From NCBI GenBank assembly GCA_018969615.1, contig JAGWYA010000001.1:169141-233140 (forward strand): 64,000 nucleotides of DNA, read 5' to 3'. Numbering within the stretch: position 1 is the stretch's first letter; each line of letters starts with the position of its first letter. This DNA comes from Patescibacteria group bacterium. Lineage in GTDB: Bacteria > Patescibacteriota > Minisyncoccia > UBA6257 > 02-FULL-45-10c. A program made the position numbers and the translations under genes. Shown piece after piece: positions 48,605 to 64,000 of this stretch. The notes below the pieces were generated by a model that had not been told where the DNA came from, ran no database searches, and was given only the letters and a program-made list of their open reading frames with translations.

Positions 48605-48823
48605 GGATAGTGCGTAGTGAGTGGCGCGTAGTTCGTAGTAAAGAAGGCGCGGAATCAAAGGCCTCATAATAACGCTGGAGCTTTTTCCTTGTTTTGGAAA
48701 TTATTATTTCTAAGCCGACCTGAGTCGGCTCCCAGACAAGGGTTGAGGCCGTCTACATGCTACTTTCTACGCGCTATCCCCACTGCCTACGGTCTACTGC
48801 CTACGTGCTATTTTATGCTACAC
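48605..48823. repeat. Palindromic intergenic element, site 1 (empty). A plus-orientation word array (48605-48643: GGATAGTGCGTAG TGAGTGGCGCGTAG TTCGTAGTAAAG), a central hairpin (48713-48730) and a minus-orientation array (48753-48823: ...CCACTGCCTAC GGTCTACTGCCTAC GTGCTA...).
   Basis: Arms are imperfect reverse complements (GGATAGTGCGTAG vs GGGATAGCGCGTAG). Strongly C-depleted on one strand. Confidence 0.7.
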
Positions 48824-48836
48824 TGGAATCAATTCT

Positions 48837-49382
48837 ATGAATCCGCAGGAGCCGCAGTACAAACTGATCGTCGGCCTGGGAAACCCGGGTCCTGATTATG
48901 CGAACACGTACCACAACGTCGGCGCCTTGGCAGTGGATCATCTCATTGAGGAAACGCGGCCGCTCACATTGAAAAAGAACGTTTCCAAGAAATTCCAATA
49001 TGCGGCGGACGGCAACATCATCTTCATTAAGCCGCTGACCTATATGAACGAATCCGGCGTCGCCGTAAAGAACGCGCTCAAGCAGTTCAAAGCGACTCCG
49101 GAAGAGATCCTCGTCATCCATGACGATTCGGATATCACGATCGGCGAATACAAGCTCTCGTATGAACGGGGTGCCGGCGGGCACAAAGGCATTGAAAGCA
49201 TCATCCAGCACCTCAAAACAAAGAAATTCTGGCGGCTCCGCATCGGCATCCGTCCTCCGGCGATCGCCGGCACGCCGCGTAAAAAAGCGGAGGAATTCGT
49301 CCTCAAACGGATCTCAGCCGCACATCGGCGGTTGCTGGAAACAGTTTTCACTGCGATCAGCGCGCATATGGAACAGCTGTAA
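48837..49382 (+). CDS. pth: Peptidyl-tRNA hydrolase.
   Basis: LIVGLGNPGPDYANTYHNVG signature. Confidence 0.95.
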   Translation: MNPQEPQYKLIVGLGNPGPDYANTYHNVGALAVDHLIEETRPLTLKKNVSKKFQYAADGNIIFIKPLTYMNESGVAVKNALKQFKATPEEILVIHDDSDITIGEYKLSYERGAGGHKGIESIIQHLKTKKFWRLRIGIRPPAIAGTPRKKAEEFVLKRISAAHRRLLETVFTAISAHMEQL

Positions 49383-49465
49383 TAGCACGTAGGGAGTAGG
49401 CAGTGGGCAGTAGTTAAATGTTAAAGGTCAAAGGTAAAAATCTCCGGCTGCTGCCGGAGATTTTT
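49383..49465. repeat. Half-element plus terminator, site 2. Plus-orientation words TAGCACGTAGGGAGTAGGCAGTGGGCAGTAG (49383-49413), then hairpin TCTCCGGC-TGCT-GCCGGAGA plus T5 (49436-49465).
   Basis: Read directly. Terminator for pth and for the PilMN gene. Confidence 0.65.
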
Positions 49466-50969
49466 AAGCGGAAAACGTGATCGTGAACGAGATCGTTCCG
49501 TCGATGTTTTGCTGGATCTTGGCGAGCGGAAGCGCGATATCCTGCAATCCCGCTTTTGTCAGGTTGTTCTTGAAATCGATCGCATCGGTCTGCGTCGCCG
49601 CCTTGGCGATGATGAAGCCGGTTCGAGTTGTCGTATCGAGCTGAAGCCGTACGAAGCTGACGCCCTGGGCCACTGAATTGATCTTCTCAAGGAACGGCGA
49701 CCAGACATTGCTGTTCTGGCGCGCATACTGCGTCTTCGTCACCAGCGCATTGAACATTTTCGCCTGAGCGGCAAGCTGCGTCACCTCAACGCCGGTCGGA
49801 AGCTGGGTCGTCCCCTGCACCTGCTGCACGATATCAACATAGGTCCGCGCAAGGAAGCTATCAACGACCACGAACATCAGGATAAAAAACATGGCGGCGG
49901 TCAGCAGGACATTCCGCCAAAATGTGATCAAAAACATGACCTGGGCGTAGAAATAGCCGTCCTCCGTTCCGATCGCCATCAAGCTGATGAAAATATCCGA
50001 AGCGCGGTTGACGGTCGCACGATATGCAGCGCCGATCAAGGCAGCCCAGGAAAGAGGCACGGCTTCGTATCCGCGGAAGGAAAGCTGCGTCACTTTATAA
50101 TGAAATTGATCCTCAATGAACTGCGCAGTCTCCTGCTGGAACGCCGGCGCGATCAAAGCAACGTTCAACAATCCGCCGCCCCAATGGTTCGCATAGAACG
50201 TACTGACCTTCTTCAACTCACGGTAGATCGTCGCCTTGAAATCGTCGAACGAGATCTCCCTCGCGGTATCGCCGGAAGGCATGAGATGCCACGGCGTGAA
50301 ATAATCGAAATACATGTTGCCATACCGGTAGATCATGAAGTCGATCCCGTCGTTCGTGATATTCATCACGATATACGGCTGCTCGGCATCAACGCCGACG
50401 CCGAACATTCTGATAGCCCGGGCGAGCGCAAGAGCGGGAAACTCAACGGCAACCGTCGTAAAACCGGCTTCCTGAAGCGCATCAACGTAAAGATCCACCA
50501 CTTCCCGCCGCGCGAACGCACCAAGATATTCAACGTTCCCGTCCTTTTCATGCAGCCGCTCCCAGTCCGCGTACACTTGCGCATACTCCGTCGGCGTAAG
50601 GCTTTGGAGATTCAATTTAATTGCCTCCGCTTCCTTCGCTTCGTTCAGCTTGGGAAGCGTAAAAACCTGCGCATAGACGCGCGGCGGCGGAATGATCGCG
50701 ATGACCGACAATTTTTCTTTGCGCTCCGGCGCGAACTGCGCCTTCAAGGTCTTGAGCTGCGCGACCAAGCGTCCCTTATCCTTCACGACCCCCTCCTGAA
50801 TGATCCCCGGTTCCAGCAGAAACCCCTCTTTCTTCAGCGATTTTTTTACGATCTGGCCGATCCGCAGCGATGAGTCGCTGAACTCAAGGCCGACCAACGG
50901 CTCTTTCGGAAGCATCATCCATTGGAAAAAGCCATTGACCTGTTCTAAAAGTTTTTTAAAGGAATTCAT
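49464..50969 (-). CDS. pilM: Type IV pilus assembly protein PilM fused to a PilN-like TM plus periplasmic domain.
   Basis: Actin-like ATPase-fold N-terminal about 330 aa (LGLEFSDSSLRIGQIV...), then TM helix VMFLITFWRNVLLTAAMFFILMFVVV and a roughly 130-aa PilN-like tail. Confidence 0.65.
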   Translation of the reverse strand: MNSFKKLLEQVNGFFQWMMLPKEPLVGLEFSDSSLRIGQIVKKSLKKEGFLLEPGIIQEGVVKDKGRLVAQLKTLKAQFAPERKEKLSVIAIIPPPRVYAQVFTLPKLNEAKEAEAIKLNLQSLTPTEYAQVYADWERLHEKDGNVEYLGAFARREVVDLYVDALQEAGFTTVAVEFPALALARAIRMFGVGVDAEQPYIVMNITNDGIDFMIYRYGNMYFDYFTPWHLMPSGDTAREISFDDFKATIYRELKKVSTFYANHWGGGLLNVALIAPAFQQETAQFIEDQFHYKVTQLSFRGYEAVPLSWAALIGAAYRATVNRASDIFISLMAIGTEDGYFYAQVMFLITFWRNVLLTAAMFFILMFVVVDSFLARTYVDIVQQVQGTTQLPTGVEVTQLAAQAKMFNALVTKTQYARQNSNVWSPFLEKINSVAQGVSFVRLQLDTTTRTGFIIAKAATQTDAIDFKNNLTKAGLQDIALPLAKIQQNIDGTISFTITFSA

Positions 50970-50981
50970 AATAGCCGTTCC

Positions 50982-53900
50982 TTAATTCATTACCTGAAGA
51001 ACAGCAGTTCCCGAAACCGCAACCGGAGGGACGATCGTAAGCGAGGTCATCGCAGCGATTTTGGCATAACAAGACGTGTGCTCATTGAAGACAGACGTTT
51101 CACTTCCGTAGGTACTTGCGGCATTGTAGGTGAACATTTGGCGAGCCGAATTTGCCGCTGATGACGTAAACGGATCTATGATCAAATTTATATCATCAAC
51201 GCTTGCCGTCATCGTTCCCGTACTTAGCTGGAACGGACAGCCGGTCCCAGCAGTAGATCCGATGCCGCCGGATGCCGCCGCTGAATTGCTGTAATTCCCG
51301 GCATAAAGATATGCGGCAGTTGAAGAATTATTAACACGGAAATACCATGTTCCTGCAGTATTTGTCGTCGGAGTTAAATTTGCGGATAACCGATAAACCG
51401 TACCCGTGGTTAATCCCGAGAATGTAATAGTGGTTGCTCCGCTCACTGTTTGATTCGAAACAGTCGTCCAAGCACCCGAACCGACAACCGGAGTTGCGGC
51501 GTAGTATGCATCAATAATAATCACGCCGGAACCACCGGCACCTCCTTGACATGCGCCAGTTCCGCCTGAGCCGCCTCCGCCAACGGCGTAAGAATAAGAC
51601 GACGCAAGGCTCGTGATCATGAATTTTGCATATTCACCCGCGCCACCACCGGCGGAATAAGCAGGTGATCCGGCATTCCAATAACAGCCACCGCCGCCGG
51701 CGCCTGAATTTGCCGCACCGGCTACGCCGTTACCCTCAGATCCATTATATGTTGCACGGCCGCCGCCGCCGAAGAATGAGTTTCCGCCTCCGGTAGAATA
51801 ACCATCGGGAGTCGAGCCGCCACCACCGGCGATACGCAATAAAGCGGTTCCCGTTCCGCCAGTTCCGCCAGCACCACCGCCACCAGTAGTCACCGCCGCA
51901 CCGCCGCCGGGATTTGCCGTAACCCCATCAAATGAAGTTGCGCCTCCGGTTGATCCAGGGCCAGCACTTGTATGAGCACCCGAACCACCACCACCACCAC
52001 CGACCATCTGTATCACTAAATAGGCAGCGTTTGCAGGGGTTGTATATGTCCCGGTTCCCGAGGTAAGCACTGTTTCAGTTGGCGGAAGTGCGGATCCTCC
52101 CCCGCCCGCCGTCGTCTGGATCGTACCGTCGGGGAACTTAATACCGCCGGTTTCGGAGTAGATCGTCCCCTTCACGTCCAGCGCCGAATTCGGCGTCGTC
52201 GTCCCGATGCCGACGTTACCTGAAGAAGTGATAACCATATGTGTATTCGCTCCGCCGGTCATAAACTCGAGATTGCCCGCAGCATCTCCAACATTATAGT
52301 TGTCAGCAACCGCTGATTGGAGCGTGCCAAGATTGTTCGTCCATTTTATTAAACCGTTCGCGGTCGCCGTATTGCTCGTATTAAGGGTAAGTGTTGGTGC
52401 CGAAGAATTTAGCGCGGAAAGCTGCAAAAGACTTCCCGGCGTCGTGGTTCCAATGCCGACATAACCGCTGTTATTGATCGTCAAACGAGTCGCGCCATTC
52501 GTATTATCGTAGATCCGGAAATTATGAGTCGCATCAATCAAGCCGTTTCCGATCGTCCAGCCGCTGACGCCGTCATCGGTTCCGAAACCAAGGCCAACTG
52601 ACGAAACCGAAGTACCGATCAACTGAGCACTGCCGTTAACCGATAATAGATGTTGAGGATTTGTTGTCCCAATACCAACATTCCCGCCGTTTGGATTGAT
52701 CGCAAGCGGATGCGTCAGATCAGCGCGATTCGAATAATGCGCTTGGATCCATCCGTATGCTCCTCCTGTGTAAGCAGCTCCGATGTTAACCTCAGGGTCT
52801 CCAACGCTCAAAGACCCAAACTGCGCACCTACGGTAACCGGGGATGCTGCCGTTTGCGGGGCGCTGTCCCCCGTATTAACGGTCAAGATACTCCCGGGCG
52901 CCGCCGTCCCGATGCCGACATTACCGGTTCCTGCAGTACTATTCAAAAGAAGGTTACCGCCTCCAGTCCACGCATCAATGCCGAGATCGTTTCCGGTCCG
53001 GAATACTCTTCCCATCGTTGTCGCACCGGAGGTCAATAACGCCCAATCAGGCGATGCCGCCGTCGAATTGATCCGGAACGGCGTAGTACCGGTAGTCGCA
53101 TCAACGGTAAGCATATGATCGGGTCCTGTTGTCCCGATACCGACATTCCCGCCGTTTGGATTAAGAGCTAAAGGATATGTTGCCCCACCACCTACTTGGA
53201 GGTACCCTGTCCATGGAGGTGCGTTTAACAATCCCATGTTTATTTTCCCCGTTGTATTAGCATGTATTTGAAATTCAGTGCTTCCAGCCGTGCTCGGATT
53301 TGCTTCCGCCGTAGTATCAACCTCGAGCGCCGCTCCCGGATTCGTCGTTCCAATGCCCACATTTCCCGTATTGTAATACGCACTGGTCCCGTTCTGGGTC
53401 CACAATCCGCCCTGACTCGCCGATGTCTGAGTCGTTCCATCGGCGTACCGGATGCCGCCGGTCGTATACACCGTCCCGACTACGCTCAAGGCCTGCGAAG
53501 GCGAGGTGGTTCCGATACCGACATCTCCATTGCCTGATTTCACGACTAAGACTGGTGTTCCTCCGCCATTAGCAGTATTGAAGTAGATATCGCCATAGTT
53601 TGTCAGCACCTGCATCAAGTCTCCGCTTATCGTATTCTTAATATCCGTACGATGACCGGATGGAGATTGATTGATCGCAAACGTTTGGGTTCCTGCATTA
53701 CCAATAGAAAATCCATTGTCATAACCAGGCGTTCCCATAAGAGAAAGATAGGCACCTACCGATTGGTTGACCACGGCTAAGGTCCCCTGCGGCGTTGTTG
53801 TTCCAATGCCCACATTGCCGCTTGAATCTATATGCAGAGCGCTCACCGGATTATTGGCCGTCTTCGAAATGTCGAAATCAAGCGTGCTCAGATAACCACC

Positions 53901-56807
53901 GAGCGTTGTTGAAACGATTGAAGAGATCGGCCCTAAGTGATCCGCAAAACTCAATGTCTGCGTATCGCCCGCAATTGCATTGTCATTTCTGATCCAGGGA
54001 TCTGGGTCGCTCGTTGGTTTATAAATTTCAAGCGTGGCATTTGGGCTCGCTGTGCCGATACCCACTTTTCCGCCAACCTGCGTCAATGCCGTTTCTTGAG
54101 CGTATGTTGTCGGTGCCGTCACGGCCGAAGTTGCGGTTGAAGCCGTAAAGGCGTCGGCATTAATGCCCTCCTGCTTGATAACGATATAAGCCGTTCCCAC
54201 GTTTGCCCCATCAGTCGCCGTTACCCGCAAGCGAAGCGACAAAACAGTTCCTGACATCATTTCATCAAGTGCAAAATCATTCCCGGAATATGCCCCCGAA
54301 CTTGAAATAGGCAAAACTGTTTCCCATGTAGCATTTTGCTGGCCATATTGGATCGGAAGAATATACTGCTTCGCGGCCGAATAACCGTTTGATGGTACCG
54401 TCACCGAGATCCGCAAAGATCCTCCACCGTCCGTAAAGGCAAAACTGCCGATATCAACCTCATTATTGACCGTCAACGGCAAGGTGCGGGTCAACGGTAT
54501 AATATTTGCATTCGTAAACTTGACGTCACCGCTTCCGTCAATCGTCAGCCTCGTCACGCCATTCGTATTATCATAAATGCGGAAATTATGCGTTGCATCA
54601 ATAAGGCCGTTCCCGATCGTCCAACCGCTGACGCCATCATCGGTTCCAAAGCCAAGCCCAACCGAGCCGGTCGCGGTGCCGACTAGCTCGGCGCTACCAT
54701 TTACAGAAAGAAGGTGGTTCGGCGTAATATTTCCGATGCCGACATTGCCGCTCATAAAAACAGTATTAGCAAATGTATTATCCCTGCCAAAGTAAAGATT
54801 CCCGCCATTCGCCTGCGGATCAATATTAACGCCACTCCCCCAAGCTAATAATCTCAAAGATCCTGTCAAACTTGATGGATAGGTTACTAAAAGGGACGTG
54901 CTCGAGGTAGACGAAGAAACTTCTAGAGTTCCTCCCGGATTCGTTGTCCCGATACCGACAGCTCCGGCATCCGTAACCGTAAGCCGAGTCTGATCAGTCC
55001 CCTGAACAACGAAATTGCCGACTGAATCTTGGCCTATATCGATAAAACCAGACCCTGCTCCCTGGAAACGAACTTGCGGGCCTGCGCCGTTAGCACCAGT
55101 CCATTGCCCAACAAGCACCGTCCCTAGATAATCGGCATTATTAGCACTCACCGAGAGCCTTCCGGTTGTGCCAACAACATCGAGATTATAGGCTGGATTC
55201 GTCGTTCCAATACCGACATTGCCGGTGTTGTAATAAATATTCGAGCCATTTGAAACCCATAACCCTCCCGCCGAAGTCTGAAGCGAACCGTCAGGATACT
55301 GGATCCCGCCGGTCGCATAGACCTTTCCGGCGACGCTCAACGCCTGTGATGGCGAAGTGGTTCCGATACCGACGTTGCCGTTATTCACTATTCTCATCCT
55401 CTCCGGCGCTGCAGTACCCGCTACTTGAGATGCATCTGTATAAAAACGGATCGATCCATCGCTTGGATAGCCGATCCCAGCAAGGTTACCGGTTGAATCA
55501 TGAGAAGGCGTCGCTTGGGCAATTCCATTCCAGTTAAAATTATATCCGCCGCCATGACCGCCGCCGTTATCTAAAGTCGCAACACGCGCGTAGGAAAGAT
55601 TGCCCAGACGGAATTCACTCGCCGAGCTGATCCCATTCACATCCAAGAGCGATCCCGGGTTTGTCGTCCCGATACCAACATTCCCGTTCGTCAATACGAC
55701 CAGTTTTTGCGCCCCACCTTCGCTTAAGGCAACCGGCTGGCTTCCGCCGTTGATCGTAAAAAATCCACCCGGAGCGGCTCCGCCATCTTGGATCGTTGAC
55801 GCATTCGGGAACGAAATCCCTTCCACCGGGATCGCGTTACCGCCGATCGCGATACCCTGAAGCGTCCCGGCGCGAATACCGCCATTTACATCAAGTGCGT
55901 CTGTCGGATTCTGTGTGTTGATACCGACGTATCCCAAACTATTGACGTTAATCCCAAGCACGGCGCCACCGTCGCGACCAAGATACATATCGCCATCACC
56001 TCCGATATATCCCACCGCGCCCTCGAATGCACCGCTGGGGCCGAACATCTGAATACTCTTATTATAATCAGGTGCTACCGAAGGATCGGTGTACATTTTT
56101 ACCGCATATCCCGCACCCACATTGATACTAAGCGGATTCGTGCCAACTCCAGCCGACCCGATCCCAACACCGCCATTCGAATCAATTGATAACCGAGTTA
56201 CGCCGCTCGTATTGTCATAAATACGGAATGTGTGTGTCGAGTCGGTCAAACCATTTCCGATCGTCCAGCCGCTGACGCCGTCATCCGTTCCGAATCCGAG
56301 ACCAACCGATGAAAGCGAGGTGCCAATGAGCTGAGCATTGCCGTTCACGGAAAGAAGGTGCTGCGGGGCAGCCGTCCCGATACCGACATTGCCGTTCGCA
56401 GCGAGGATCGACATTTTCGTACCCTGATTCACACGGAATGCAAGATCATGGGCAGTGTTCAATTCCATGCCTGCATCCCAGGCGGCGCTGTTATCATGGA
56501 AATAATATCCGAGCACGGCGCCGGCGCCCGCAAGACCAATGCCGCAATTCGATGAATTCGGACACTCAACCAGAAGCGGGTTATTGGTTGGAAAAGAGGC
56601 TGAAGTTAAAAGAGAATTCCCGCCATGAACATACAGGGTCGTTCCTGTGGTGGGCGCCGCGCCTCCGATATCCAATGATGCCGGCAAGTTTCCCGATGGC
56701 GGTGATGTGCTCGGTTCAGTCCAAGCCGCAAAAACCACGTATGACGAAAGAAGCAACAACGTCGTTACCAGGAAAATAGTTGCCGTGTTCTTCACTAAAC
56801 GCAACAT
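50982..56807 (-). CDS. Giant secreted fiber/adhesin-like protein (about 1940 aa) with tail-fiber-type GNVGIGTxxP repeats and a Gly-rich C-terminal region.
   Basis: Start at Met54 of the track ORF (MLRLVKNTATIFLVTTLLLLSSYVVFAAWTEP signal peptide). More than 15 copies of ...NGNVGIGTT(N/S)P... and ...LSVNG.A.L.G... repeats. C-terminal poly-Gly tracts. Confidence 0.8.
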   Translation of the reverse strand: MLRLVKNTATIFLVTTLLLLSSYVVFAAWTEPSTSPPSGNLPASLDIGGAAPTTGTTLYVHGGNSLLTSASFPTNNPLLVECPNSSNCGIGLAGAGAVLGYYFHDNSAAWDAGMELNTAHDLAFRVNQGTKMSILAANGNVGIGTAAPQHLLSVNGNAQLIGTSLSSVGLGFGTDDGVSGWTIGNGLTDSTHTFRIYDNTSGVTRLSIDSNGGVGIGSAGVGTNPLSINVGAGYAVKMYTDPSVAPDYNKSIQMFGPSGAFEGAVGYIGGDGDMYLGRDGGAVLGINVNSLGYVGINTQNPTDALDVNGGIRAGTLQGIAIGGNAIPVEGISFPNASTIQDGGAAPGGFFTINGGSQPVALSEGGAQKLVVLTNGNVGIGTTNPGSLLDVNGISSASEFRLGNLSYARVATLDNGGGHGGGYNFNWNGIAQATPSHDSTGNLAGIGYPSDGSIRFYTDASQVAGTAAPERMRIVNNGNVGIGTTSPSQALSVAGKVYATGGIQYPDGSLQTSAGGLWVSNGSNIYYNTGNVGIGTTNPAYNLDVVGTTGRLSVSANNADYLGTVLVGQWTGANGAGPQVRFQGAGSGFIDIGQDSVGNFVVQGTDQTRLTVTDAGAVGIGTTNPGGTLEVSSSTSSTSLLVTYPSSLTGSLRLLAWGSGVNIDPQANGGNLYFGRDNTFANTVFMSGNVGIGNITPNHLLSVNGSAELVGTATGSVGLGFGTDDGVSGWTIGNGLIDATHNFRIYDNTNGVTRLTIDGSGDVKFTNANIIPLTRTLPLTVNNEVDIGSFAFTDGGGSLRISVTVPSNGYSAAKQYILPIQYGQQNATWETVLPISSSGAYSGNDFALDEMMSGTVLSLRLRVTATDGANVGTAYIVIKQEGINADAFTASTATSAVTAPTTYAQETALTQVGGKVGIGTASPNATLEIYKPTSDPDPWIRNDNAIAGDTQTLSFADHLGPISSIVSTTLGGYLSTLDFDISKTANNPVSALHIDSSGNVGIGTTTPQGTLAVVNQSVGAYLSLMGTPGYDNGFSIGNAGTQTFAINQSPSGHRTDIKNTISGDLMQVLTNYGDIYFNTANGGGTPVLVVKSGNGDVGIGTTSPSQALSVVGTVYTTGGIRYADGTTQTSASQGGLWTQNGTSAYYNTGNVGIGTTNPGAALEVDTTAEANPSTAGSTEFQIHANTTGKINMGLLNAPPWTGYLQVGGGATYPLALNPNGGNVGIGTTGPDHMLTVDATTGTTPFRINSTAASPDWALLTSGATTMGRVFRTGNDLGIDAWTGGGNLLLNSTAGTGNVGIGTAAPGSILTVNTGDSAPQTAASPVTVGAQFGSLSVGDPEVNIGAAYTGGAYGWIQAHYSNRADLTHPLAINPNGGNVGIGTTNPQHLLSVNGSAQLIGTSVSSVGLGFGTDDGVSGWTIGNGLIDATHNFRIYDNTNGATRLTINNSGYVGIGTTTPGSLLQLSALNSSAPTLTLNTSNTATANGLIKWTNNLGTLQSAVADNYNVGDAAGNLEFMTGGANTHMVITSSGNVGIGTTTPNSALDVKGTIYSETGGIKFPDGTIQTTAGGGGSALPPTETVLTSGTGTYTTPANAAYLVIQMVGGGGGGSGAHTSAGPGSTGGATSFDGVTANPGGGAAVTTGGGGAGGTGGTGTALLRIAGGGGSTPDGYSTGGGNSFFGGGGRATYNGSEGNGVAGAANSGAGGGGCYWNAGSPAYSAGGGAGEYAKFMITSLASSYSYAVGGGGSGGTGACQGGAGGSGVIIIDAYYAATPVVGSGAWTTVSNQTVSGATTITFSGLTTGTVYRLSANLTPTTNTAGTWYFRVNNSSTAAYLYAGNYSNSAAASGGIGSTAGTGCPFQLSTGTMTASVDDINLIIDPFTSSAANSARQMFTYNAASTYGSETSVFNEHTSCYAKIAAMTSLTIVPPVAVSGTAVLQVMN

Positions 56808-56828
56808 GTTCTTATTGTACCATTTTTT

Positions 56829-56948: not shown

Positions 56949-56966
56949 GCCTAACCGAAGCTCCAT

Positions 56967-57155: not shown

Positions 57156-57162
57156 TATTTTG

Positions 57163-57384: not shown

Positions 57385-57468
57385 ACTTTCAAAATAACAC
57401 GCTTCAAAAGGAAAAACAATTTAATTTCGCCCCGGATCCCGCATCAAGTGCGGAATGACAATGTGGCT

Positions 57469-57540
57469 GCCACCCCTACTCCCCACTACCTACTGCCTAC
57501 TCCCTACTTACTATTTAGTTCGTATGCACGTAATAATACA
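57469..57540. repeat. Element arm, site 3 right. Minus-orientation words CCACCCCTACTCCCCACTACCTACTGCCTACTCCCTACTTACTATT, running into the 3' end of gene 57515..58801.
   Basis: Reverse complement matches the plus-orientation array at 56829-56904. Confidence 0.6.
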
Positions 57541-58801
57541 CATCCCCCCAGTGCATCCAGCCGAGATCGGCATCATCCCAAGACCAACCGCTGAAGCGCC
57601 CTCCGGAATCGATCGAGACGCCATAGCTGCTGTTATCAAGCGCGGTGCCCGCCAAATGGATCCAGCTCCCCGATCCCATCACCTTCGCCCAACCGGTCAG
57701 CGTTTTCGGGAACGTGCCGGTCAATCCGCCGGGGATCGTCGCATTACAGGTTCCGCTCGGGCAACCCACCAGATCGGATGCCGTAAAACTGATCCAACCG
57801 AGAACATCCGACCAGGCATAGCCGTCCATCACGCCGGTCGTCGCGTTCACCGTCACACCGTAATTCGATGTCCCGCAACTCCCCTGATTGGAACAACTGA
57901 AGCTGATCCAGCCGAGATTCGAGTACGCCCATCCGGAGATCGCGTTCGTACCGCTCTGCGTCAGAATGCCATACGCCACTTCACTCAGTGATTCCACCTT
58001 CACTTCACCGGTCGCCTGGTTCACATCGAGGATCGCCTTCAGTTGGTGCGTGCGGTTCTGCATGCTCCCCAGCGAAATGATCTGGTCCTTGTTCAACCCG
58101 ACGCAATTCGGCGCCGGCTGGTCCGCGCACACGGTCACGTTTGCGATACTGCCGTCGGGGAATGACAGTGCATATTGGCCCGAAAATGTTTTATCGCGCG
58201 CGATCCGCAGCATTGCATCCTGGATCCCTGATTGCGCCGCCGCGAGCGCCTGCGCGTTCAACCGCGCATTCAGCTCCGTTTTACTGGTCAATGCATTGCC
58301 CACCAATAACGCGACCGCGATCTCAATAACCAGCCCGCCGATCATGATGACAAGCGGCAAAGCGGCGATGCCCCGCTTTGCCCGTAGTCCGTGGGCAGTA
58401 GGCAGTGGAGGAAAAGATACTTTCAGGCTCCGAAGTTTTCTCAAAAGCACATTCAGCATTTTCATAACCATCTCAAGAAGTTGCTCAACTTTTTTATATT
58501 CACTTTCATTCATAAGCATGTTCCGCTTTGCTATCTCAAGTTGAGTCTCCAGTTCAGCGCCGGAACCAAAAGCGATAGATAAGAATTGAATATACGATCC
58601 GTCAGAATTCCTTCGGTATCCTTCAGCAATATTCGAAGGAATAGAAACCGCCGCACGACGCATCTGAGACACAAGACCGAATCGCTCACTATCAGGAAAC
58701 TTATTTGTCAGCAAATAGATCTCATCAACAAGATCGATGCTCTTCTGCCATACGGTTAAGTTTTTATATGTTTTCAGTTCCATAATCTGTCTATATATCA
58801 T
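57515..58801 (-). CDS. In-frame fusion. N-terminal four-helix-bundle protein of the 23S-rRNA-intervening-sequence family (about 127 aa) joined to an atypical prepilin-like TM segment and a roughly 280-aa secreted domain ending in a GW-rich module shared with 62635..63918.
   Basis: GGGAGGT RBS plus ATG at 58799-58801. Residues 1-127 MIYRQIMELKTYKNLTVWQKSIDLVDEIYLLTNKFP...IAFGSGAELETQLEIA are typical 4HB (PF05635-like). No stop before KRGIAALPLVIMIGGLVIEIAVALLV. C-terminus GWISFSCSN...CG..NYG...GWISF...GWMHW. Confidence 0.6.
   Translation of the reverse strand: MIYRQIMELKTYKNLTVWQKSIDLVDEIYLLTNKFPDSERFGLVSQMRRAAVSIPSNIAEGYRRNSDGSYIQFLSIAFGSGAELETQLEIAKRNMLMNESEYKKVEQLLEMVMKMLNVLLRKLRSLKVSFPPLPTAHGLRAKRGIAALPLVIMIGGLVIEIAVALLVGNALTSKTELNARLNAQALAAAQSGIQDAMLRIARDKTFSGQYALSFPDGSIANVTVCADQPAPNCVGLNKDQIISLGSMQNRTHQLKAILDVNQATGEVKVESLSEVAYGILTQSGTNAISGWAYSNLGWISFSCSNQGSCGTSNYGVTVNATTGVMDGYAWSDVLGWISFTASDLVGCPSGTCNATIPGGLTGTFPKTLTGWAKVMGSGSWIHLAGTALDNSSYGVSIDSGGRFSGWSWDDADLGWMHWGDVYYYVHTN
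58382..58407. repeat. Left inverted arm of the 4HB cassette (CGTAGTCCGTGGGCAGTAGGCAGTGG). It lies inside the coding frame, encoding LPTAHGLR.
   Basis: Reverse complement of 58843-58874 (GTAGTCCGT identical, then GGCAGTGG words). Confidence 0.65.
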
Positions 58802-58807
58802 ACCTCC

Positions 58808-58874
58808 CTACTGCGCACGATCTACTTTTCTACTTTCTATTTCCACTGCCCACTGCCTACTCTCTACGGACTAC
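58808..58874. repeat. Right inverted arm of the 4HB cassette (...CCACTGCCCACTGCCTACTCTCTACGGACTAC), overlapping the stop of 58871..59809.
   Basis: See the left arm. Together the arms bound a roughly 390-bp segment of visibly lower GC (about 40% vs about 58%). Confidence 0.65.
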
Positions 58875-59809
58875 TTGCTAAGCCCTATCGAAACACTATC
58901 CACTTGCGGCGTGGCGTTTGCGGTATCAAAAATGATCTTGTACCGGAAATAGCGCGCATTGATATAAGGAGATGCCGGGATCGGAACCTGCACATTCGGT
59001 CCCGCGGGCTCCAGAAGCGATCCGTAACTCCATGGACCGCCGGAACTGTTCGAGGTCGCGATCTCAAATCCCACTTTTGATCCGCTCGGCTGGGTCCCCT
59101 GCCAGATAAAATAATTATACCCTGCTCCGTTCGTTTCCTGCGTATCATACGTGCTGGAAACCACTTCACACTGCTCGGAAGCGGCGTTACAGGTCGTGAG
59201 CGACGGCAAGATCGATCCCGGCGTACCGGTATAATTGACATTCGCTGATGAAAAAAACTGACCGTTCGTACGCGTGATCGGTCCCGCTTGTCCCGACCCG
59301 TTAGACCAATCGGTCTGCGTCACGGCGAACGACTGCCACCGCGTCACATAAAAAGAAGTGGAAACGGTCTGTGCGGCGCCCAAGACCGGGAACGAGGTCG
59401 TCACGGTTACCTTCCGGGTATAGGGATCATCCCCGCTTGAACTATAAGTGGCATCGATCAACCCCGCGGTCCGGGAAACCGGGTCCACATAAAACGAGCG
59501 CGTGAACGAAATATTATTCACCGTGACGGTCTCAGGGCCGACAGCGGATGCCAGAACCCCGCCGGTATTCGTCAGATGATAGGTGTTCGCCGAGCCCGTG
59601 GTCAGCGCATACAGATCGGGCCAATTCCCGCCTGAAAATGAACGCACCTCATCGCCCAGTGAATTATTGACGATCGTTGCGCTCTGACTCTTCGTATTGA
59701 ATTCATTGGTGCGGACGCTCACCACATACGCGCCGCCGATCCCCGTCAAAACCAGCGCGCCGATACCGAGCGCCACCAATACTTCCACTATTGACTGTCC
59801 GCTTCTCAT
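58871..59809 (-). CDS. Type IV pilin/pseudopilin-like protein (class III signal peptide).
   Basis: MRSGQSIVEVLVALGIGALVL: G then QSIVE with Glu at +5, and a hydrophobic helix. Ser/Thr/Asn-rich secreted domain. Confidence 0.7.
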   Translation of the reverse strand: MRSGQSIVEVLVALGIGALVLTGIGGAYVVSVRTNEFNTKSQSATIVNNSLGDEVRSFSGGNWPDLYALTTGSANTYHLTNTGGVLASAVGPETVTVNNISFTRSFYVDPVSRTAGLIDATYSSSGDDPYTRKVTVTTSFPVLGAAQTVSTSFYVTRWQSFAVTQTDWSNGSGQAGPITRTNGQFFSSANVNYTGTPGSILPSLTTCNAASEQCEVVSSTYDTQETNGAGYNYFIWQGTQPSGSKVGFEIATSNSSGGPWSYGSLLEPAGPNVQVPIPASPYINARYFRYKIIFDTANATPQVDSVSIGLSK

Positions 59810-59824
59810 GAACTTATTCTAACA

Positions 59825-60005
59825 TAGGCAGTAGTGAGTAGGCAGTTGGCAGTAGGGATAGTGAGTAGGAAGCAGAACGTGGGCAGTAGAAATAGTAAGT
59901 AACGAGTAGGCAGTGGCGCGTAGAAAGGATGAGATACAAAAATTCCGACGAAGAGTCGGAATTTTTTACTACTGCCTACGTGCTACTTTCTACCTACTAT
60001 TTCGT
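59825..60005. repeat. Palindromic intergenic element, site 4 (empty). A plus-orientation word array (59825-59927: ATAGGCAGTAG TGAGTAGGCAGT TGGCAGTAGG ... GTGGGCAGTAG ... AGTAGGCAGTGG), a central terminator hairpin TTCCGACG-AAG-AGTCGGAA plus T6 (59943-59967), and minus-orientation words (59968-60005).
   Basis: Read directly. One strand is almost devoid of C outside GCAG. Confidence 0.75.
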
Positions 60006-60308: not shown

Positions 60309-60315
60309 GTTTCCG

Positions 60316-62469
60316 CTAATTAACATCCATTAACGTCAATGACGATCGCATTCTTGCTGACCAAACATTACCGCTGGCATCGCTTCCCAGCGCGTTAACT
60401 TTCAAAGCAGCGCCCTGTGGAGAATCTACTTGTATCCGATATGTCACTGGGCTCGCAGTCCCCGGAGAATCTAAATAAATAGCTGATCCTTCCTTATTAT
60501 TATTTGGGTCGGATGATCCTCCGTAGAAACTTGGCGAAGAAACGCTGAGATACCCAGTTACTGTAGGCGGAACTGCTACAACCGTATCTACGCCGCCAAC
60601 ATTCCTAACAATTCTATAATATCCGGCGTCAGCTCCACCCATTCCAATATTCACATTCGCCATCACGAGTATCCTACTCGACGCCGAATTCGGCGTTATC
60701 GTTTCAGAAAAACCAGTGACATCAACCCATGTTGTCGACGTAGTCGAAAACACAGTCATGAACTCATTTGATACAACATTCATAGAACTCATGTTTCTCC
60801 CACTAACATTCAGATCCCCATTTACCGACAAATTCCCCTGCACTCCGACGTCGTCATAGAATTGTGCATTTCGGCTCACGCCCAAACGCCCGGTCGCAAG
60901 AATATGCGACATCGGAACATAAAAGACGCTGTTCAATGTAGTCACGTTGCTTGGATCACCAATACCGTCAACAATATAGACATAGCCATTGACGATCGTC
61001 GCTGCAAAATTACGTATATTCGCCGGCATATTCGTTGAAGAGCTCCAAGCGCTGTCCATCGTGCCGTCGCTGTTGATATGAATATAATAGACTGATGAAT
61101 ATGAATAGCTTCCGGTGCAGTTATTGCAATCACCGCCAAGCACATAGAGATCGCCGTTTGATGCAACCGCAGCGCCTACGCCCCGAGGACTTGGAAGCGA
61201 CGTAGTATTACCCCATGCGCCGAGTCCTCCATCCGGTTCGATCTTTGCATAATAGCCGGTCGCTTGATATATACTCGATGAATCCCACCCGCTGATCACA
61301 TACACATACCCGTTCACGACAGCGCCCTCGGCGCCATTTCTAAATGTAGGAAGCGGCGTTGTCGTCCCCCACGTACCAACCGTCCCATCACTGTTCACTT
61401 TTGCAGAATAAACCGTTGTCGAACTGCCGCCGCCGATCTGGCCGCTGATCACGTAAATATAGTCGCCCGCGGTAACAACTACGCTCTCGCTCGCGGTAGC
61501 GGGCAGCGCCGTTGTCGTTCCCCAAGCTCCCAACGTTCCGTCGCTATTTACTTTTGAGTAATAAACGGTATTGTAACCGCTGTCTAGCATATAGATGTAA
61601 CCGTTCAACGTCACCGCAACACCGCCTTCCGCGACCGGCAAGGCGCTTGTTAACGTCCATGTACCAGGGGTTCCGTCGTTCCCAATTTTTGCATAGTATA
61701 CCGTGGTCGAGTTAGTACCGCTGACGTTCCCTCCAATGACATACAAATAACCATTCACGGATACGAGTCCGTTGCCATAGCGCGTATCGGGAAAGTTCGC
61801 AGCAGTCGTCCAAGTTCCTAGATCCCCTGTTGTGACAGGTGTATTCGTATTATAGATATTTGATCCTAACGTTGACCACCCTCCGCCTCCCGATGAAGCT
61901 GTCGTCTGCGTGGTGCCGTCGGGGAATTTGAATCCGCCGGTTTCTGAATAAATAATCCCTTTCACATCCAATGCCGAGTTCGGCGTTGTCGTCCCGATGC
62001 CGACATTGTTATTGGACTTAAGGATCGTCAATGGATGACTTGAAGTGCCGTAATTAAAAAGGGAAAAATCTTCATTGCCCGATTCATTCCCTAAGCCCAT
62101 ACCCCACTGACCGTTGCCCGCAGTGAGGAATTCAAGCCAAGCGATATAGCTGCTGTTATTTGTTCTATCCAAATTAACCCATGCATTCGCACTGCTAGGA
62201 GCGATCACCAATGCCTGTTGCGGAGTCGATGTCCCGATGCCGACATTTCCTAAACTCACAATAAGTCCATTCGCCGCGCCGCCGGTGTTCAAAATGAGGC
62301 CGCCGGCTTTCGTTTGGCCGGTCGCGCTCACATCAAGCGGCGCCGATACGTTCCCGCCTGTCGGCGCCACCGTCGGTTCTGTCCACGAGGCAAAAACAAC
62401 ATACGCCGATGCGAGCAATAAAGCACTTACCAGAAACATTTGGATCGTTTCACGAAGAAAGCGTTTCAT
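60316..62469 (-). CDS. Secreted fiber-repeat protein with a six-blade Kelch-type beta-propeller and a C-terminal beta-sandwich domain.
   Basis: Signal peptide MKRFLRETIQMFLVSALLLASAYVVFASWTEP (same N-terminal pattern as the giant protein), GNVGIGT(S/T)TP repeats, then six units of ...NGY.YV(I/L)GG...VYY(A/S)K(I/V)N.DGT.G.W... . Confidence 0.75.
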   Translation of the reverse strand: MKRFLRETIQMFLVSALLLASAYVVFASWTEPTVAPTGGNVSAPLDVSATGQTKAGGLILNTGGAANGLIVSLGNVGIGTSTPQQALVIAPSSANAWVNLDRTNNSSYIAWLEFLTAGNGQWGMGLGNESGNEDFSLFNYGTSSHPLTILKSNNNVGIGTTTPNSALDVKGIIYSETGGFKFPDGTTQTTASSGGGGWSTLGSNIYNTNTPVTTGDLGTWTTAANFPDTRYGNGLVSVNGYLYVIGGNVSGTNSTTVYYAKIGNDGTPGTWTLTSALPVAEGGVAVTLNGYIYMLDSGYNTVYYSKVNSDGTLGAWGTTTALPATASESVVVTAGDYIYVISGQIGGGSSTTVYSAKVNSDGTVGTWGTTTPLPTFRNGAEGAVVNGYVYVISGWDSSSIYQATGYYAKIEPDGGLGAWGNTTSLPSPRGVGAAVASNGDLYVLGGDCNNCTGSYSYSSVYYIHINSDGTMDSAWSSSTNMPANIRNFAATIVNGYVYIVDGIGDPSNVTTLNSVFYVPMSHILATGRLGVSRNAQFYDDVGVQGNLSVNGDLNVSGRNMSSMNVVSNEFMTVFSTTSTTWVDVTGFSETITPNSASSRILVMANVNIGMGGADAGYYRIVRNVGGVDTVVAVPPTVTGYLSVSSPSFYGGSSDPNNNKEGSAIYLDSPGTASPVTYRIQVDSPQGAALKVNALGSDASGNVWSARMRSSLTLMDVN

Positions 62470-62480
62470 ATGTTTAGTAT

Positions 62481-62638
62481 AACATAGGAATAGTACGTAG
62501 GAAGTAGCACGTGGGCAGTAGAAATGGTTAGTAGTAAGTGGCTCGTAGGCAGTGGGGATAGTCCGTAGTAAGTTGGCAGTGGTACGTAGAAAAAATTCTC
62601 TACTGCCTACTCACTACGAGCCACTCGCTACTATCTAG
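62481..62638. repeat. Palindromic intergenic element, site 5 (empty). Plus-orientation words (62481-62590: ...GTAGGAAGTAGCACGTGGGCAGTAG...GTAAGTGGCTCGTAGGCAGTGG...GTTGGCAGTGG) then minus-orientation words (62600-62638: CTACTGCCTACTCACTACGAGCCACTCGCTAC).
   Basis: Arms share a 12-nt exact inverted core CTACGAGCCACT / AGTGGCTCGTAG. Confidence 0.75.
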
Positions 62639-63918
62639 TTCACTCTCGCCCCATAGCTCACGCTTCCGCAGGCGCTGGTATTACTACAATTAAAGCTCAA
62701 CCATCCAAGCGTCGTCGAGTCCCAGCCCCAGCCTGACAGCGTTCCATTTGCAGCCAACGACACGCCGTATGTACTTGCATTCTGCGCCGTCCCACTTAAA
62801 TGGAGCCAACTTCCCGTCGAGATGATCTTCCCCCATCCGGTCATTGCCGTCGGGAACGGACCCGCAAGACCGTTCGTGATCTTCGCCACACAATTCCCGC
62901 TCGGACAGCCGGTGAGATCGTTCTGATTGAAATCGATCCAGCCGATCGTCGGCGACCACGCATACCCATTCAGGATCCCCGTGCTCGCATCAGCGTTCAC
63001 GCCATAGTTCACCGTTCCGCACGTTGTCGTATTACTGCAATTAAAACTGATCCAGCCGCTGTTCGACGACCAGGCAAAACCGGACATCGGCACATACGTC
63101 GTATTCACGGTCAGAATAAAATTCGCGGTTGTGGTCGCGGTCCCATCCCCGATCTGCACGGGCAATGTCACGCTTCCCGACGGCGTTGAAATACTTGTCG
63201 TTAAATTCAAGGTAGCGCTGCAATTCGGCGTACACGTCGCCGGATTAAACACCGCCACGACACCGCTCGGCAAATTACTGACGGAAAAGGCACCCGCATG
63301 CGGGATCCCCGCAGTAACGGTCACGGTCGCGGTTGTTTGCGTCGATCCGCCCGCCTGTATCGTCGCGGTCGTCGGCGACAGGCTCATCGTCAATTGTTCA
63401 CCCGATGCGCTCTTTGAGGTTGTGATCAATCCGCTTCCGCTTAAAACCGAAATATATCGGACGATTGACGTGTCGGCCGTCAACGCCAGCGTGATCCCAT
63501 GATCTATCGCCGGGATCCCGGTCACTTTCGGAAAGTCGATCTCTTCCGTATTTCCCTGCGCCGGAGTCAAAAATTCGACCGACTTTGGCAAATAAACCGT
63601 ATCAGTCACCGTTCCGGTCGCATACGAATCTCCGTAAAAAACCTTATAATAATGGCCCCCTACTGCCGGCGCGGCATCCAAATAAACCCCCCAGGCGGAA
63701 TTCTCATACTGCGATTGCGCATTCTGCTGCGCAGCGACCAAATTATCCTGAAGCTGTTTCGCAGCGGCATCCAGCTCAGTGGTCGAACGGAACACCGTCG
63801 GCAAACTCATAACCGCGGCGGTACCCAAGATCGCCGTGAGCGCCGTAACGATAACGATCTCCAACAGCGTGAAGCCGGCAACGTGCTTAGTCCGCAAGGA
63901 TGATCTTTTAGGCGTCAT
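62635..63918 (-). CDS. Type IV pilin-like protein with a large C-terminal domain ending in the GW-rich module shared with 57515..58801.
   Basis: MTPKRSSLRTKHVAGFTLLEIVIVTALTAILGTAAV is a canonical prepilin leader (G then FTLLE, Glu at +5). C-terminal module GWISFNCSN..CG.VNYG...GWIDF...GWLSFNCSN. Confidence 0.8.
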   Translation of the reverse strand: MTPKRSSLRTKHVAGFTLLEIVIVTALTAILGTAAVMSLPTVFRSTTELDAAAKQLQDNLVAAQQNAQSQYENSAWGVYLDAAPAVGGHYYKVFYGDSYATGTVTDTVYLPKSVEFLTPAQGNTEEIDFPKVTGIPAIDHGITLALTADTSIVRYISVLSGSGLITTSKSASGEQLTMSLSPTTATIQAGGSTQTTATVTVTAGIPHAGAFSVSNLPSGVVAVFNPATCTPNCSATLNLTTSISTPSGSVTLPVQIGDGTATTTANFILTVNTTYVPMSGFAWSSNSGWISFNCSNTTTCGTVNYGVNADASTGILNGYAWSPTIGWIDFNQNDLTGCPSGNCVAKITNGLAGPFPTAMTGWGKIISTGSWLHLSGTAQNASTYGVSLAANGTLSGWGWDSTTLGWLSFNCSNTSACGSVSYGARVN

Positions 63919-63940
63919 ACCTTATTAGCTTATCACAAAA

Positions 63941-63973
63941 ATAGGCAGTAGAAAGATAGTCGAACGTCGAATG
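63941..63973. repeat. Start of another plus-orientation word array (ATAGGCAGTAGAAAGATAGTCGAACGTCGAATG) at the window edge, upstream of the pilin-like gene.
   Basis: Read directly. Truncated by the window end. Confidence 0.5.
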
Positions 63974-64000
63974 TCCAATGTCAAAAGGAGGATGCCTTAG

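Follow-up and report, generated by a model that had tools for sequence, protein, structure and literature searches.

Seven inverted heptamer arrays in a type IV pilus locus

The window analysed here, 64 kb of DNA from a Patescibacteria group bacterium, carries between 48 and 64 kb a type IV pilus locus, encoded mostly on the minus strand, whose intergenic spacers hold a family of imperfect palindromes. A typical member consists of an array of short G-rich, C-poor words (the G-orientation arm), a centre, and an array of the reverse-complement words (the C-orientation arm), and one member encloses a gene for a four-helix bundle (4HB) protein. The PilM-like protein and the 312-amino-acid pilin of this locus each have an identical counterpart that NCBI places in a "Patescibacteria group bacterium", and look-ups of the exact 427-amino-acid pilin and Kelch protein found no such record. 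We describe below these elements, the sites homologous to them in other genomes and the explanations that may account for them. The seven sites, with the parts of minus-strand sites given in minus-strand order, are:

S1, 48603-48823, no strand assigned: palindromic element between the divergent genes lepB (minus) and pth (plus), with a G-orientation arm (48603-48655), a nested hairpin (48715-48730) in the centre and a C-orientation arm (48752-48823)
S2, 49381-49466, plus strand: a lone G-orientation arm (49381-49415) straight after the pth stop codon, beside a terminator
S3, 56826-57516, minus strand: element with foreign content, namely pilin stop codon, 5' arm (57455-57516), hairpin, hicB, hicA, copy of a pilin 3' end, 3' arm (56826-56905)
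S4, 58380-58882, minus strand: complete element with the 4HB gene in its loop, namely stop codon of the 312-amino-acid (aa) pilin, 5' arm (58800-58882), GGGAGG, 4HB gene (58783-58420), 3' arm (58380-58412)
S5, 59822-59998, minus strand: element without an open reading frame (ORF), with a 5' arm (59964-59998), an intrinsic terminator (about 59937-59967) and a long 3' arm (59822-59930)
S6, 62478-62636, minus strand: ORF-less element with almost no centre and no terminator, with a 5' arm (62596-62636) and a long 3' arm (62478-62592)
S7, 63938-63986, minus strand: start of a further element, cut by the end of the window

The genes among which they lie are:

lepB, 47995-48537, minus strand, adjoining S1
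pth, 48837-49382, plus strand, between S1 and S2
PilM-like gene, 49464-50969, convergent with pth
gene of a 1941-aa repetitive protein (the giant gene, ATG at 56808), 50982-56807, minus strand
hicA, 56967-57155, minus strand (Pfam HicA, 3.7e-11)
hicB, 57163-57384, minus strand (UPF0150, 3.7e-07)
pseudopilin gene, 57515 to about 58345-58390, minus strand
4HB gene (PF05635/TIGR02436), 58420-58783, minus strand
312-aa pilin gene, 58871-59809, minus strand
109-aa ORF, between the 312-aa pilin and Kelch-repeat genes
Kelch-repeat protein gene, 60316-62469, minus strand
427-aa pilin gene, 62635-63918, minus strand

The original prediction, made from the sequence alone, was of a single dispersed family of palindromes embedded in the pilin locus, and this stands: all the sites that it listed exist, and the window contains 26 copies of the word GGCAGTRG where shuffled sequences contain 1.59 +/- 1.17. 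Twenty-two of these 26 copies are intergenic and lie at 48.7-64 kb, the 15 other intergenic gaps in 1-48 kb hold no words of this type, and the seven sites fall within 15.4 kb with none in the other 48 kb of the window. Because the words are missing from those 48 kb, the idea of a DNA-uptake sequence was dropped. The unit of the arrays is not the word of 9-12 nt that had been proposed: the arms resemble themselves most at lag 7 (identity 0.51) and lag 14 (0.49), against 0.20-0.35 at other lags, and successive T[AG]G motifs are spaced by 7 nt in 54 of 83 intervals, so that the arms are built of a degenerate heptamer, about TAGGCAG, repeated contiguously and in inverted blocks. A clustered regularly interspaced short palindromic repeat (CRISPR) array was rejected on these grounds (units of 7 nt that are degenerate, contiguous and in inverted blocks) and for want of any match to an Rfam CRISPR direct repeat.

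The arms have a marked composition and polarity. Their depletion in C is real, but to call them nearly free of C outside GCAG was an overstatement, as 11.7% of the residues in the G-orientation arms are C, and 26 of these 87 C residues fall within GCAG. On either strand, the G-rich, C-poor, TAG-bearing arm comes first. Nine of the 12 arms, read in G orientation, close all three reading frames, whereas in C orientation there are 5 stop codons in 743 nt. Following the direction of transcription, each gene is succeeded by the G/TAG arm, a centre (a terminator, a gene or nothing), the C arm, an extended -10 box and the ATG of the next gene. The box, TGnTAnAAT, stands 6-7 nt before the start codon without a Shine-Dalgarno sequence (pth, with 11 nt, is the exception), and a -10 box 6 nt before an ATG implies leaderless mRNAs. 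The 3' arm of S3 is followed by TGGTACAAT (56814-56822), 6 nt and the giant-gene ATG (56808); S5 ends with TGTTAGAAT (59816-59824), 6 nt and the ATG of the 312-aa pilin gene (59809); S6 ends with TGTTATACT (62476-62484), 6 nt and the Kelch-gene ATG (62469). Each arm of S1 lies just upstream of such a box, TGTATTAT for lepB and TGCTACACT (48817-48825) for pth, and a further one, at about 57391-57399, precedes hicB, which is leaderless. We read these boxes by eye; they were overlooked by a generic promoter and terminator scan, which was uninformative (19 promoter-like signals against 15 expected, and 24 terminator-like against 17). S3, S5 and S6 each have a long promoter-proximal arm of ~100 nt; these three arms are paralogous modules, and that of S6 aligns with the other two with scores of 66.

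In predicted folds, the arms pair only with the opposite arm. They are complementary over 29 nt at S3 (76%, within a range of 76-89% for its inverted arms), 34 nt at S4 (82%), 35 nt at S5 (80%) and 36 nt at S6 (78%). The claim that every site has inverted arms is borne out at these four sites (76-82% over 29-36 nt) but not at S2, a single arm whose best partner lies across pth, within S1 (48782-48812, 87% complementary over 31 nt). The transcribed strand of S5 folds with -49.7 kcal/mol (z -8.8), its 5' arm pairing with the distal part of the 3' arm around the terminator, that of S6 with -48.9 kcal/mol (z -5.1), and folding of the S1 centre is modest (z about -2.5). An Rfam scan of 48-64 kb (E<=1) gave no known RNA family, only sub-threshold miRNA look-alikes on the S6 hairpin. 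The centres differ in part from what had been described. The terminator expected at the first, second and fourth sites is found at S2, as a perfect 14-bp bidirectional hairpin (49435-49466) common to pth and the convergent PilM-like gene, but the hairpin of S1 is an internal one, and at S4 the 4HB gene occupies the centre; the near absence of a centre that had been ascribed to S5, which has a clear terminator, is a feature of S6.

Some sites have peculiarities of their own. The S1 centre (48656-48751) is a nested palindrome, GAGGCC...GGCCTC around the 48715-48730 hairpin, and is nearly identical in a relative whose PilM is 87% identical (L202, 4190-4275) despite its position amid divergent promoters; one possibility is a small transcript, another a site of protein binding. 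At S3, a 26-nt direct repeat (56913-56938 and 57540-57565, 88% identical and longer when gaps are admitted) copies the pseudopilin 3' end, and its two copies flank the G arm and the hicBA segment, of whose insertion it may be the footprint. S7 starts with a GGCAGTAG-type arm (63938-63962, with a word match at 63944) upstream of the promoter of the 427-aa pilin gene. Beside this arm stands a second heptamer family (63962-63985: GTCGAAC GTCGAAT GTCCAAT GTCAAAA), which resembles the TGACCAA/TTGGTCA arms round the 4HB gene of another relative (L204, see below), and a further element, perhaps with another 4HB gene, may lie just past 64 kb.

The 3' arm of S4 runs into the pseudopilin reading frame. 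The 4HB ORF of this site has no stop codon and stays open, in the same frame, across the 3' arm and on into the pseudopilin, which results in an ORF of 428 codons (57515-58801, minus strand), and in L204 the stop codon of the 4HB gene overlaps the next ATG (ATGA). Relatives without the element have a leader of 12-15 aa ahead of the conserved GIAALPLV of the pseudopilin; in the window this leader is encoded by the arm, and the sole in-frame start nearby is CTG. In both filled genomes, the window and L204, it is the 3' arm that encodes the residues just upstream of GIAALPLV. The long ORF could reflect a real fusion, a non-canonical start or an indel in the assembly.

Homologous sites and 4HB loci in Patescibacteria

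The protein encoded in S4 belongs to a family (PF05635, 1.1e-38; TIGR02436, 129.7 bits) known as "S23p / IVS protein", which is given as functionally uncharacterised and was first seen in the intervening sequences (IVSs) of 23S rRNA. Its best relative of solved structure is XCC0516 of Xanthomonas campestris (PDB 2GSC, E 4.4e-27), which, according to its crystal-structure paper, forms a quaternary structure out of five four-helix bundles. It is also a distant homologue of Avd, the accessory protein of diversity-generating retroelements (DGRs; PF22296, 9.6e-07), but reaches 29 bits in the Avd equivalog model, where the cut-off is 80, and there is no reverse transcriptase among the scanned ORFs of the window. 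A DGR was rejected for these reasons, a template/variable repeat pair not having been searched for specifically.

Comparison with the same locus in relatives reveals the elements in several states. The relative closest in PilM (L202, 87%) has GGCAGTAG-type arms at both S1 and S2; its S1 has one heptamer more, and its S2 spacer carries an arm after each of the two convergent genes, the second of which is missing in the window. A more distant relative (L204; PilM 61%, pilin 57%) has a 4HB gene at the same pilin-pseudopilin junction, enclosed by TGACCAA/TTGGTCA arms. These arms are unrelated to those of the window and the two 4HB proteins are 32% identical, against 47-57% for the flanking proteins. 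That genome also has GTAGGCAGTAG-type arms in the equivalent of S5, upstream of the pilin gene, where the centre contains additional inserts, and at least four word families occur within 10 kb with one 4HB gene. In three other relatives (L224, L225 and L226; pilin 52-56%) the junction measures 4-30 nt and has neither 4HB gene nor arms, and two more (L205 and L206; PilM about 50%) have plain terminator-plus-promoter spacers. The spacers orthologous to S5 in L224 and L226 likewise consist of a terminator and a promoter without arms; judged from this comparison, S5 is the terminator-plus-promoter spacer of the relatives with arms added around it. The -10/ATG layout is kept in the relatives without heptamer arms (L205, L206, L224, L226), and two short Logan contigs (L001, L223) are identical to the window. 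Hairpins of the form GTCATTCC(C/G)...GGAATGAC recur in palindrome centres of L204 (820-960 and 5930-5990), with another upstream of hicB in the window (57430-57460); they may represent a small family of repeats, distinct from the arrays, that lodges in the loops. The GTCATTCCGCAC hairpin motif is not enriched in the window.

The recurrence of homologous positions with the element (window, L204) and without it (L224, L225, L226), for which the original prediction had suggested a search, is thus observed. Junctions that are filled, differently filled and empty indicate that an element was gained at one junction and that it was replaced as a unit, gene and arms together. This modifies the proposal of a site-specific element that accepts cargo. 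The cargoes themselves, namely the PF05635 4HB gene, hicAB and the duplicated fragment of a pilin 3' end, are all confirmed, and homologous sites are indeed filled or empty, but the scanned ORFs of the 64 kb include no recombinase, integrase or transposase. Rather than a cargo entering a standing site, the 4HB gene and its arms behave as one unit that is gained or replaced, the window and L204 having unrelated arms at the same junction and proteins with 32% identity. Nor is the cargo of a general kind: 4HB genes are the sole family found systematically between arms, and for hicBA there is one instance, at S3, with a short duplication on its flanks.

We considered in this context that the arms could be recombination sites of the integron or shufflon type, each gene of the pilus locus being a cassette between palindromes. 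Every gene of the locus is bounded by arms, those on either side of pth are 87% complementary, S3 holds the hicBA module with a duplicated fragment, and equivalent sites have different contents in relatives; as in integrons, imperfect palindromes stand at gene boundaries with variable content between them. Yet there is no intI, attI or Pc, no tyrosine or serine recombinase, transposase or REP-associated tyrosine transposase (RAYT) appears among the scanned ORFs of the window (nor a reverse transcriptase or integrase), and the arm ends, read directly, have no attC cores (RYYYAAC / GTTRRRY). The genes have promoters of their own and their order is conserved with relatives. We therefore regard this explanation as highly improbable.

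Is the association of 4HB genes with inverted heptamers a peculiarity of this locus? The 4HB protein of S4 is 60-68% identical to those of other lineages of the Candidate Phyla Radiation (CPR), including Gribaldobacteria and Moranbacteria, and its relatives are encoded at 80 metagenome loci with 47-62% identity. Our comparative samples are biased, having been picked by 4HB protein or by word pattern. At 63 of the 70 non-redundant loci of Patescibacteria, the upstream flank of the 4HB gene is complementary to its own downstream flank (scoring above the 95th percentile of cross-locus pairings, with a median of 32 against 15), whereas the same test was positive for 11 of 182 non-4HB ORFs (6%) on those contigs. 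The arms have a mean length of 32 nt and ~84% Watson-Crick pairs, and a stricter period detector finds period 7 in 72 of the 95 arrays of these contigs. The unit differs from locus to locus (TAGCTTC, TAGGCAC, TAGCGTA, AGTGACG), yet the two arms of one locus match.

At these loci the arms occupy the whole spacer. A median of ~2 nt separates the stop codon of the upstream gene from the start of the 5' arm, which in many cases itself supplies that stop, and the 3' arm ends at a median of ~9 nt before the next start codon. Neighbouring genes are mostly co-oriented with the 4HB gene (45 of 55 upstream and 48 of 56 downstream), and arrays upstream of it read TAG rather than CTA by 44 to 7. In the arms TAG is 3.8-fold more frequent than expected from composition, against 1.0 for TGA and 0.5 for TAA. 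Other spacers of the CPR contigs are taken up by hairpins of this build that have no ORF (e.g., L125, L153, L175). That the 3' arm stays open in all frames, as in the window, was discarded as a general rule: it is only partly true of the CPR loci.

Two further explanations can be weighed against these data. The first is that the arrays are functionless by-products of slippage and template switching, i.e., long heptanucleotide simple sequence repeats (SSRs) in tolerant spacers with the 4HB gene as a tolerated passenger. Heptanucleotides are the most abundant class of long SSRs in most prokaryotes and are put down to polymerase slippage (Mrazek 2007, as cited in PMC4679880), the arrays of Xanthomonas, Nostoc and Beggiatoaceae have been described with function unknown (PMC4692102, PMC4679880), and the arms are imperfect, with mismatches of all types. 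Slippage would account for the 7-nt unit. However, slippage alone does not produce matched inverted copies round one gene family (90% against 6% of the controls), and it leaves unexplained both the 3.8-fold excess of TAG and the fixed polarity (44 to 7 for the upstream arrays, and 10 to 1 in other phyla among the matches listed). This makes it quite unlikely in our judgement. The second is that the arrays are locus-specific regulatory DNA, such as protein-binding or UP-like modules or phase-variable tracts that tune the pilin and fibre genes, inverted copies being by-products. The ~100-nt modules of S3, S5 and S6 all end in TGnTAnAAT, 6 nt and ATG, the arrays of the 64 kb are confined to the pilus locus, a single heptamer indel separates the window from L202, and the S1 arms stand upstream of two divergent promoters. 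But the distance and phase of the words to the -10 box vary between promoters, and the same architecture surrounds 4HB genes in promoterless operons and in an rRNA gene (see below). Moreover, words vary freely between sites and genomes while the arms of one site stay matched, and the orthologous promoters of L205, L206, L224 and L226 have no arrays. A regulatory role seems, on balance, decidedly unlikely.

Other phyla, plasmids and a 23S rRNA gene

We scanned representative genomes for three spaced GGCAGTRG words, a pattern biased towards this word. Among the matches listed, 44 of 120 loci have arrays of period 7, and the other 76 have other periods and are mostly coding. Those of period 7 come from Acidobacteriota, Chloroflexota, Bacteroidota, Planctomycetota, Saccharibacteria, Alphaproteobacteria and others, and where they have an inverted partner the polarity is that of the window (G arm first) in 10 cases and the opposite in 1, again among the matches listed. 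A 4HB gene lies between the arrays in a Planctomycetaceae metagenome-assembled genome (MAG; L007) and in Mesorhizobium sp. ISC25 (L087); in the third 4HB locus among the matches listed (L004), TAG words lie upstream. The 4HB genes of Mesorhizobium, of the Planctomycetaceae MAG and of MAG AC1.30 adjoin arrays of this sort.

Plasmids offer cases from cultured strains. Searching plasmid records with tblastn yielded 34 with a relative of the S4 4HB gene; we inspected 15 loci, of which 14 are distinct, and all those inspected are from cultured strains. Inverted heptamer arms bracket the gene in 10 of the 14, those of Geminocystis, Picosynechococcus PCC 7003, Calothrix PCC 7716, Nostoc C052, Stanieria, Anabaena 90, Leptolyngbya, Riemerella anatipestifer, Azospirillum lipoferum and Gemmatirosa. 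Two (Pseudanabaena and Oscillatoria PCC 7112) have direct arrays on both sides, one (Nostoc PCC 7120) has a one-sided array and one (Nostoc commune) has none. In Pseudanabaena, ~17 AAAGCTA units lie upstream and AAAGCCA units downstream, direct and not inverted. Several of these genes are wedged, with their heptamer arrays, in CRISPR-cas operons, as cas6-4HB-cas4 in plasmids of Pseudanabaena galeata (L210) and Anabaena sp. 90 (L219) and as cmr2-4HB-cmr3 in a plasmid of Picosynechococcus PCC 7003 (L212). The presence of 23S_rRNA_IVP genes inside cas operons has been reported, the repeats not being commented on (Zhang and Ye 2013).

The plasmid AZO_p2 of Azospirillum lipoferum 4B provides a connection with ribosomal IVSs. 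At 13898-15245 (L214), an unannotated 4HB ORF lies inside the large-subunit (LSU, 23S) rRNA gene (LSU match of 716 bits, model positions 774-1770; we read the insertion as being in the helix-45 region), with a stem built of GGACRGA heptamers. Given its position inside the 23S rRNA gene, it looks like a classical ORF-bearing IVS. The analogy with rRNA IVSs, which the original prediction drew from the 4HB gene, therefore holds in the one rRNA case examined, besides the arms that bracket the gene at 63 of 70 CPR and 10 of 14 plasmid loci. Taking these comparisons together, a 4HB gene usually lies in the loop of an inverted-heptamer hairpin in Patescibacteria, Cyanobacteria, Bacteroidota, Alphaproteobacteria, Gemmatimonadota and Planctomycetes.

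Xanthomonas campestris pv. campestris (Xcc), the source of the closest solved structure, has 186 GGGAATC arrays, including 70 convergent pairs, whose function has been called unknown (Rehm et al. 2015, PMC4692102). Repeat #15 of that set lies 6 nt from bccP (XCC0517) and overlaps the annotated start of XCC0516 (supplementary file 2, PMC4692102); "S23" and "four helix" are absent from the text of Rehm et al. 2015, and the adjacency of #15 to XCC0516 is not commented on there (PMC4692102). This brings in a further explanation, by which the 4HB protein and the arrays form a pair like that of a RAYT and its REPINs (hairpins of two inverted repetitive extragenic palindromic, REP, sequences): the protein would bind, maintain or propagate the heptamer-array hairpins, and the rRNA IVS would be a special insertion site. 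First, the 4HB gene is nearly always inside an array pair. Second, the words of the 4HB arms recur in ORF-less arrays close by on the same genome (the six other sites of the window; L125, L153, L175), and XCC0516 adjoins one of the 186 arrays of Xanthomonas (PMC4692102). Third, the 4HB gene and its arms are exchanged together at one site. Fourth, XCC0516 assembles as five four-helix bundles, and the family is distantly related to the Avd proteins of DGRs. Nucleic acid and reverse transcriptase are both bound by Avd.

Several observations go against such a pair. The 4HB protein is a helical bundle of 120 aa without a known catalytic motif, L204 has at least four word families within 10 kb for one 4HB gene, and covariation of heptamer word with 4HB protein is weak and confounded by phylogeny (rho 0.15). 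Most (TAGGCAG)n arrays of other phyla have no 4HB gene nearby, among the matches listed, and in Coxiella the S23p protein is apparently not made, its ORF decaying (PMC4990558). We hold the explanation to be unlikely. The same low probability attaches to its broadest form, in which 4HB proteins and heptamer hairpins would be one widespread self-propagating system of two parts, a small pentameric protein recognising or maintaining its own flanking arrays as well as the ORF-less ones. If that were the case, ORF-bearing rRNA IVSs, the short tandemly repeated repetitive (STRR) and GGGAATC repeats and the orphan 4HB genes of cas, acc and pilus operons would be one element.

The arrays can also be compared with REP sequences proper. 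Many REPs carry a conserved GT[AG]G motif, and the words of the window begin with GTAG or GTGG. Like REPs, their mosaic elements (BIMEs) and REPINs, the arrays are extragenic, hairpin-forming, lineage-specific and often located between co-transcribed genes, and, as with a RAYT gene, inverted copies stand on both sides of the protein gene that goes with them. In contrast, a REP unit is a small palindrome of its own, whereas the C-poor arms pair only with the opposite arm, and the scanned ORFs of the 64 kb include no Y1-transposase gene. Within the 64 kb covered, out of a contig of 240 kb, the copies are few and clustered. The assertion that these elements are not classical REP, CRISPR or integron attC sequences is upheld.

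A proposed family of IVS-type hairpins between protein-coding genes

The explanation that we prefer, and to which we give about an even chance, is that a single family of IVS-type hairpins with heptamer-array stems, of the sort found around 4HB genes, is represented locally by the seven sites. S4 is its complete form in the window, S3 holds hicBA, and the rest are ORF-less, S5 enclosing a terminator and S2 being reduced to one arm beside a terminator. The similarity to rRNA IVSs extends to several traits. These are elements of ~0.4-0.5 kb closed by a ~25-35-bp stem from terminal inverted repeats, with a 4HB ORF of ~120 codons in the loop (as at S4, in Coxiella burnetii, in Leptospira and in Azospirillum AZO_p2), a sporadic distribution and indications that the element was acquired horizontally and then retained by vertical descent; the stem of the Azospirillum IVS is heptameric, as are the arms of the window. 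Short rRNA IVSs without an ORF also exist. The IVS of Coxiella has 428 nt, an S23p ORF in the loop and a closing stem of 28 bp that is cut mid-stem by RNase III (PMC4990558). The differences are that the sites of the window lie between protein-coding genes and not in helices 9, 25 and 45 of rRNA (48-64 kb has no rRNA match), that they abut stop codons, start codons or promoters, and that some enclose a terminator or hicBA. Excision by RNase III, without re-ligation, is known for rRNA IVSs, whereas for the elements of the window we infer it by analogy.

The arrays as such have parallels as well. STRR arrays were described in cyanobacteria around 1990. Together with the GGGAATC arrays of Xanthomonas (PMC4692102) and the TAACTGA arrays of Beggiatoaceae, Cyanobacteria and Bacteroidetes (MacGregor 2015, PMC4679880), they share with the window a unit of 7 nt that is specific to the lineage, an intergenic position, often at gene boundaries, changes of copy number in steps of 7 nt, and frequent convergent inverted pairs (70-75 in Xanthomonas). 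They differ in that the arrays of the window are degenerate instead of perfect and confined to one locus within 64 kb, and a link with PF05635 is not drawn in either study (PMC4692102, PMC4679880).

How such a family could persist between protein-coding genes can be sketched as follows. The elements would be guest DNA, or DNA on the way to domestication, occupying the whole stretch between a stop codon and the promoter or start codon that comes next. With TAG recurring at intervals of 7 nt, the three frames would be closed to ribosomes arriving from either side, and the outgoing arm, which is nearly free of stop codons, could even supply the opening codons of the following gene (as in S4 and L204). 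Once co-transcribed, the arms would pair into a ~25-35-bp stem, which may be cut by an enzyme of the RNase III type or may act as a 3' stabiliser or insulator; by analogy with rRNA IVSs, the guest would thereby be uncoupled from its neighbours. The arms would change by slippage of heptamers, and the 4HB gene with its arms would be gained or replaced as one unit. What we observe directly is the architecture, the periodicity, the polarity and the predicted folds, the specificity for 4HB genes, the rRNA case with its heptamer arms, and presence, absence and replacement at homologous sites; the cleavage of the RNA, the halting of ribosomes by the TAG-bearing arm, the way in which the elements move and the activity of the 4HB protein are inferences.

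A number of observations weigh against this explanation. First, the pairing of same-site arms as imperfect inverted copies, which had been predicted, is confirmed, but in the window these arms match no better than arms of different sites. Second, S1 lies between divergent promoters, outside both flanking mRNAs, and a role at the RNA level therefore cannot explain it. Third, the terminator between the arms of S5 means that its 3' arm is transcribed by read-through only. Fourth, ~25% of the 3' arms of CPR loci are also closed by stop codons in all frames, and the excess concerns TAG and not stop codons in general, which the scheme leaves without explanation; together they indicate that closing frames is not the whole reason for the sequence of the arms. 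Fifth, mismatches between arms are G.U in 55 cases and A.C in 53; with G.U in no excess, there is no strand-specific RNA signature. Finally, a 4HB gene is near (TAGGCAG)n arrays in only 3 of 120 loci among the matches listed in the scan of other phyla.

Heptamer arrays, their convergent pairs and ORF-bearing IVSs were each known separately. Full-text searching, of incomplete coverage, found no literature linking PF05635 genes to heptamer arrays, and none on elements of the IVS type between protein-coding genes. Our comparisons indicate that two puzzles treated separately until now, the intergenic heptanucleotide repeats and the S23p/IVS protein family, belong together. If this is true, both can be tested in tractable organisms such as Xanthomonas campestris, Picosynechococcus, Riemerella and Mesorhizobium. 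It also matters for annotation, as the gene before such an element takes its stop codon from it and the gene after it takes leader codons, and as the elements create false fusions, of which the 428-codon 4HB-pseudopilin ORF of the window may be an example.

Two other features of the window deserve mention, the remaining scanned ORFs of the 64 kb belonging to housekeeping or transport families or having no Pfam match. The 1941-aa protein (50982-56807, minus strand) has long internal repeats and an N-terminus resembling a signal peptide; no convincing NCBIfam match was found for it, and the size of its orthologue varies greatly among relatives. The segment 33000-35500 has a GC content of 0.40-0.43, against ~0.53 for the window, and encodes a histidine kinase of 715 aa together with a GNAT protein similar to an autoinducer or N-acyl amino acid synthase; it is possibly acquired DNA.

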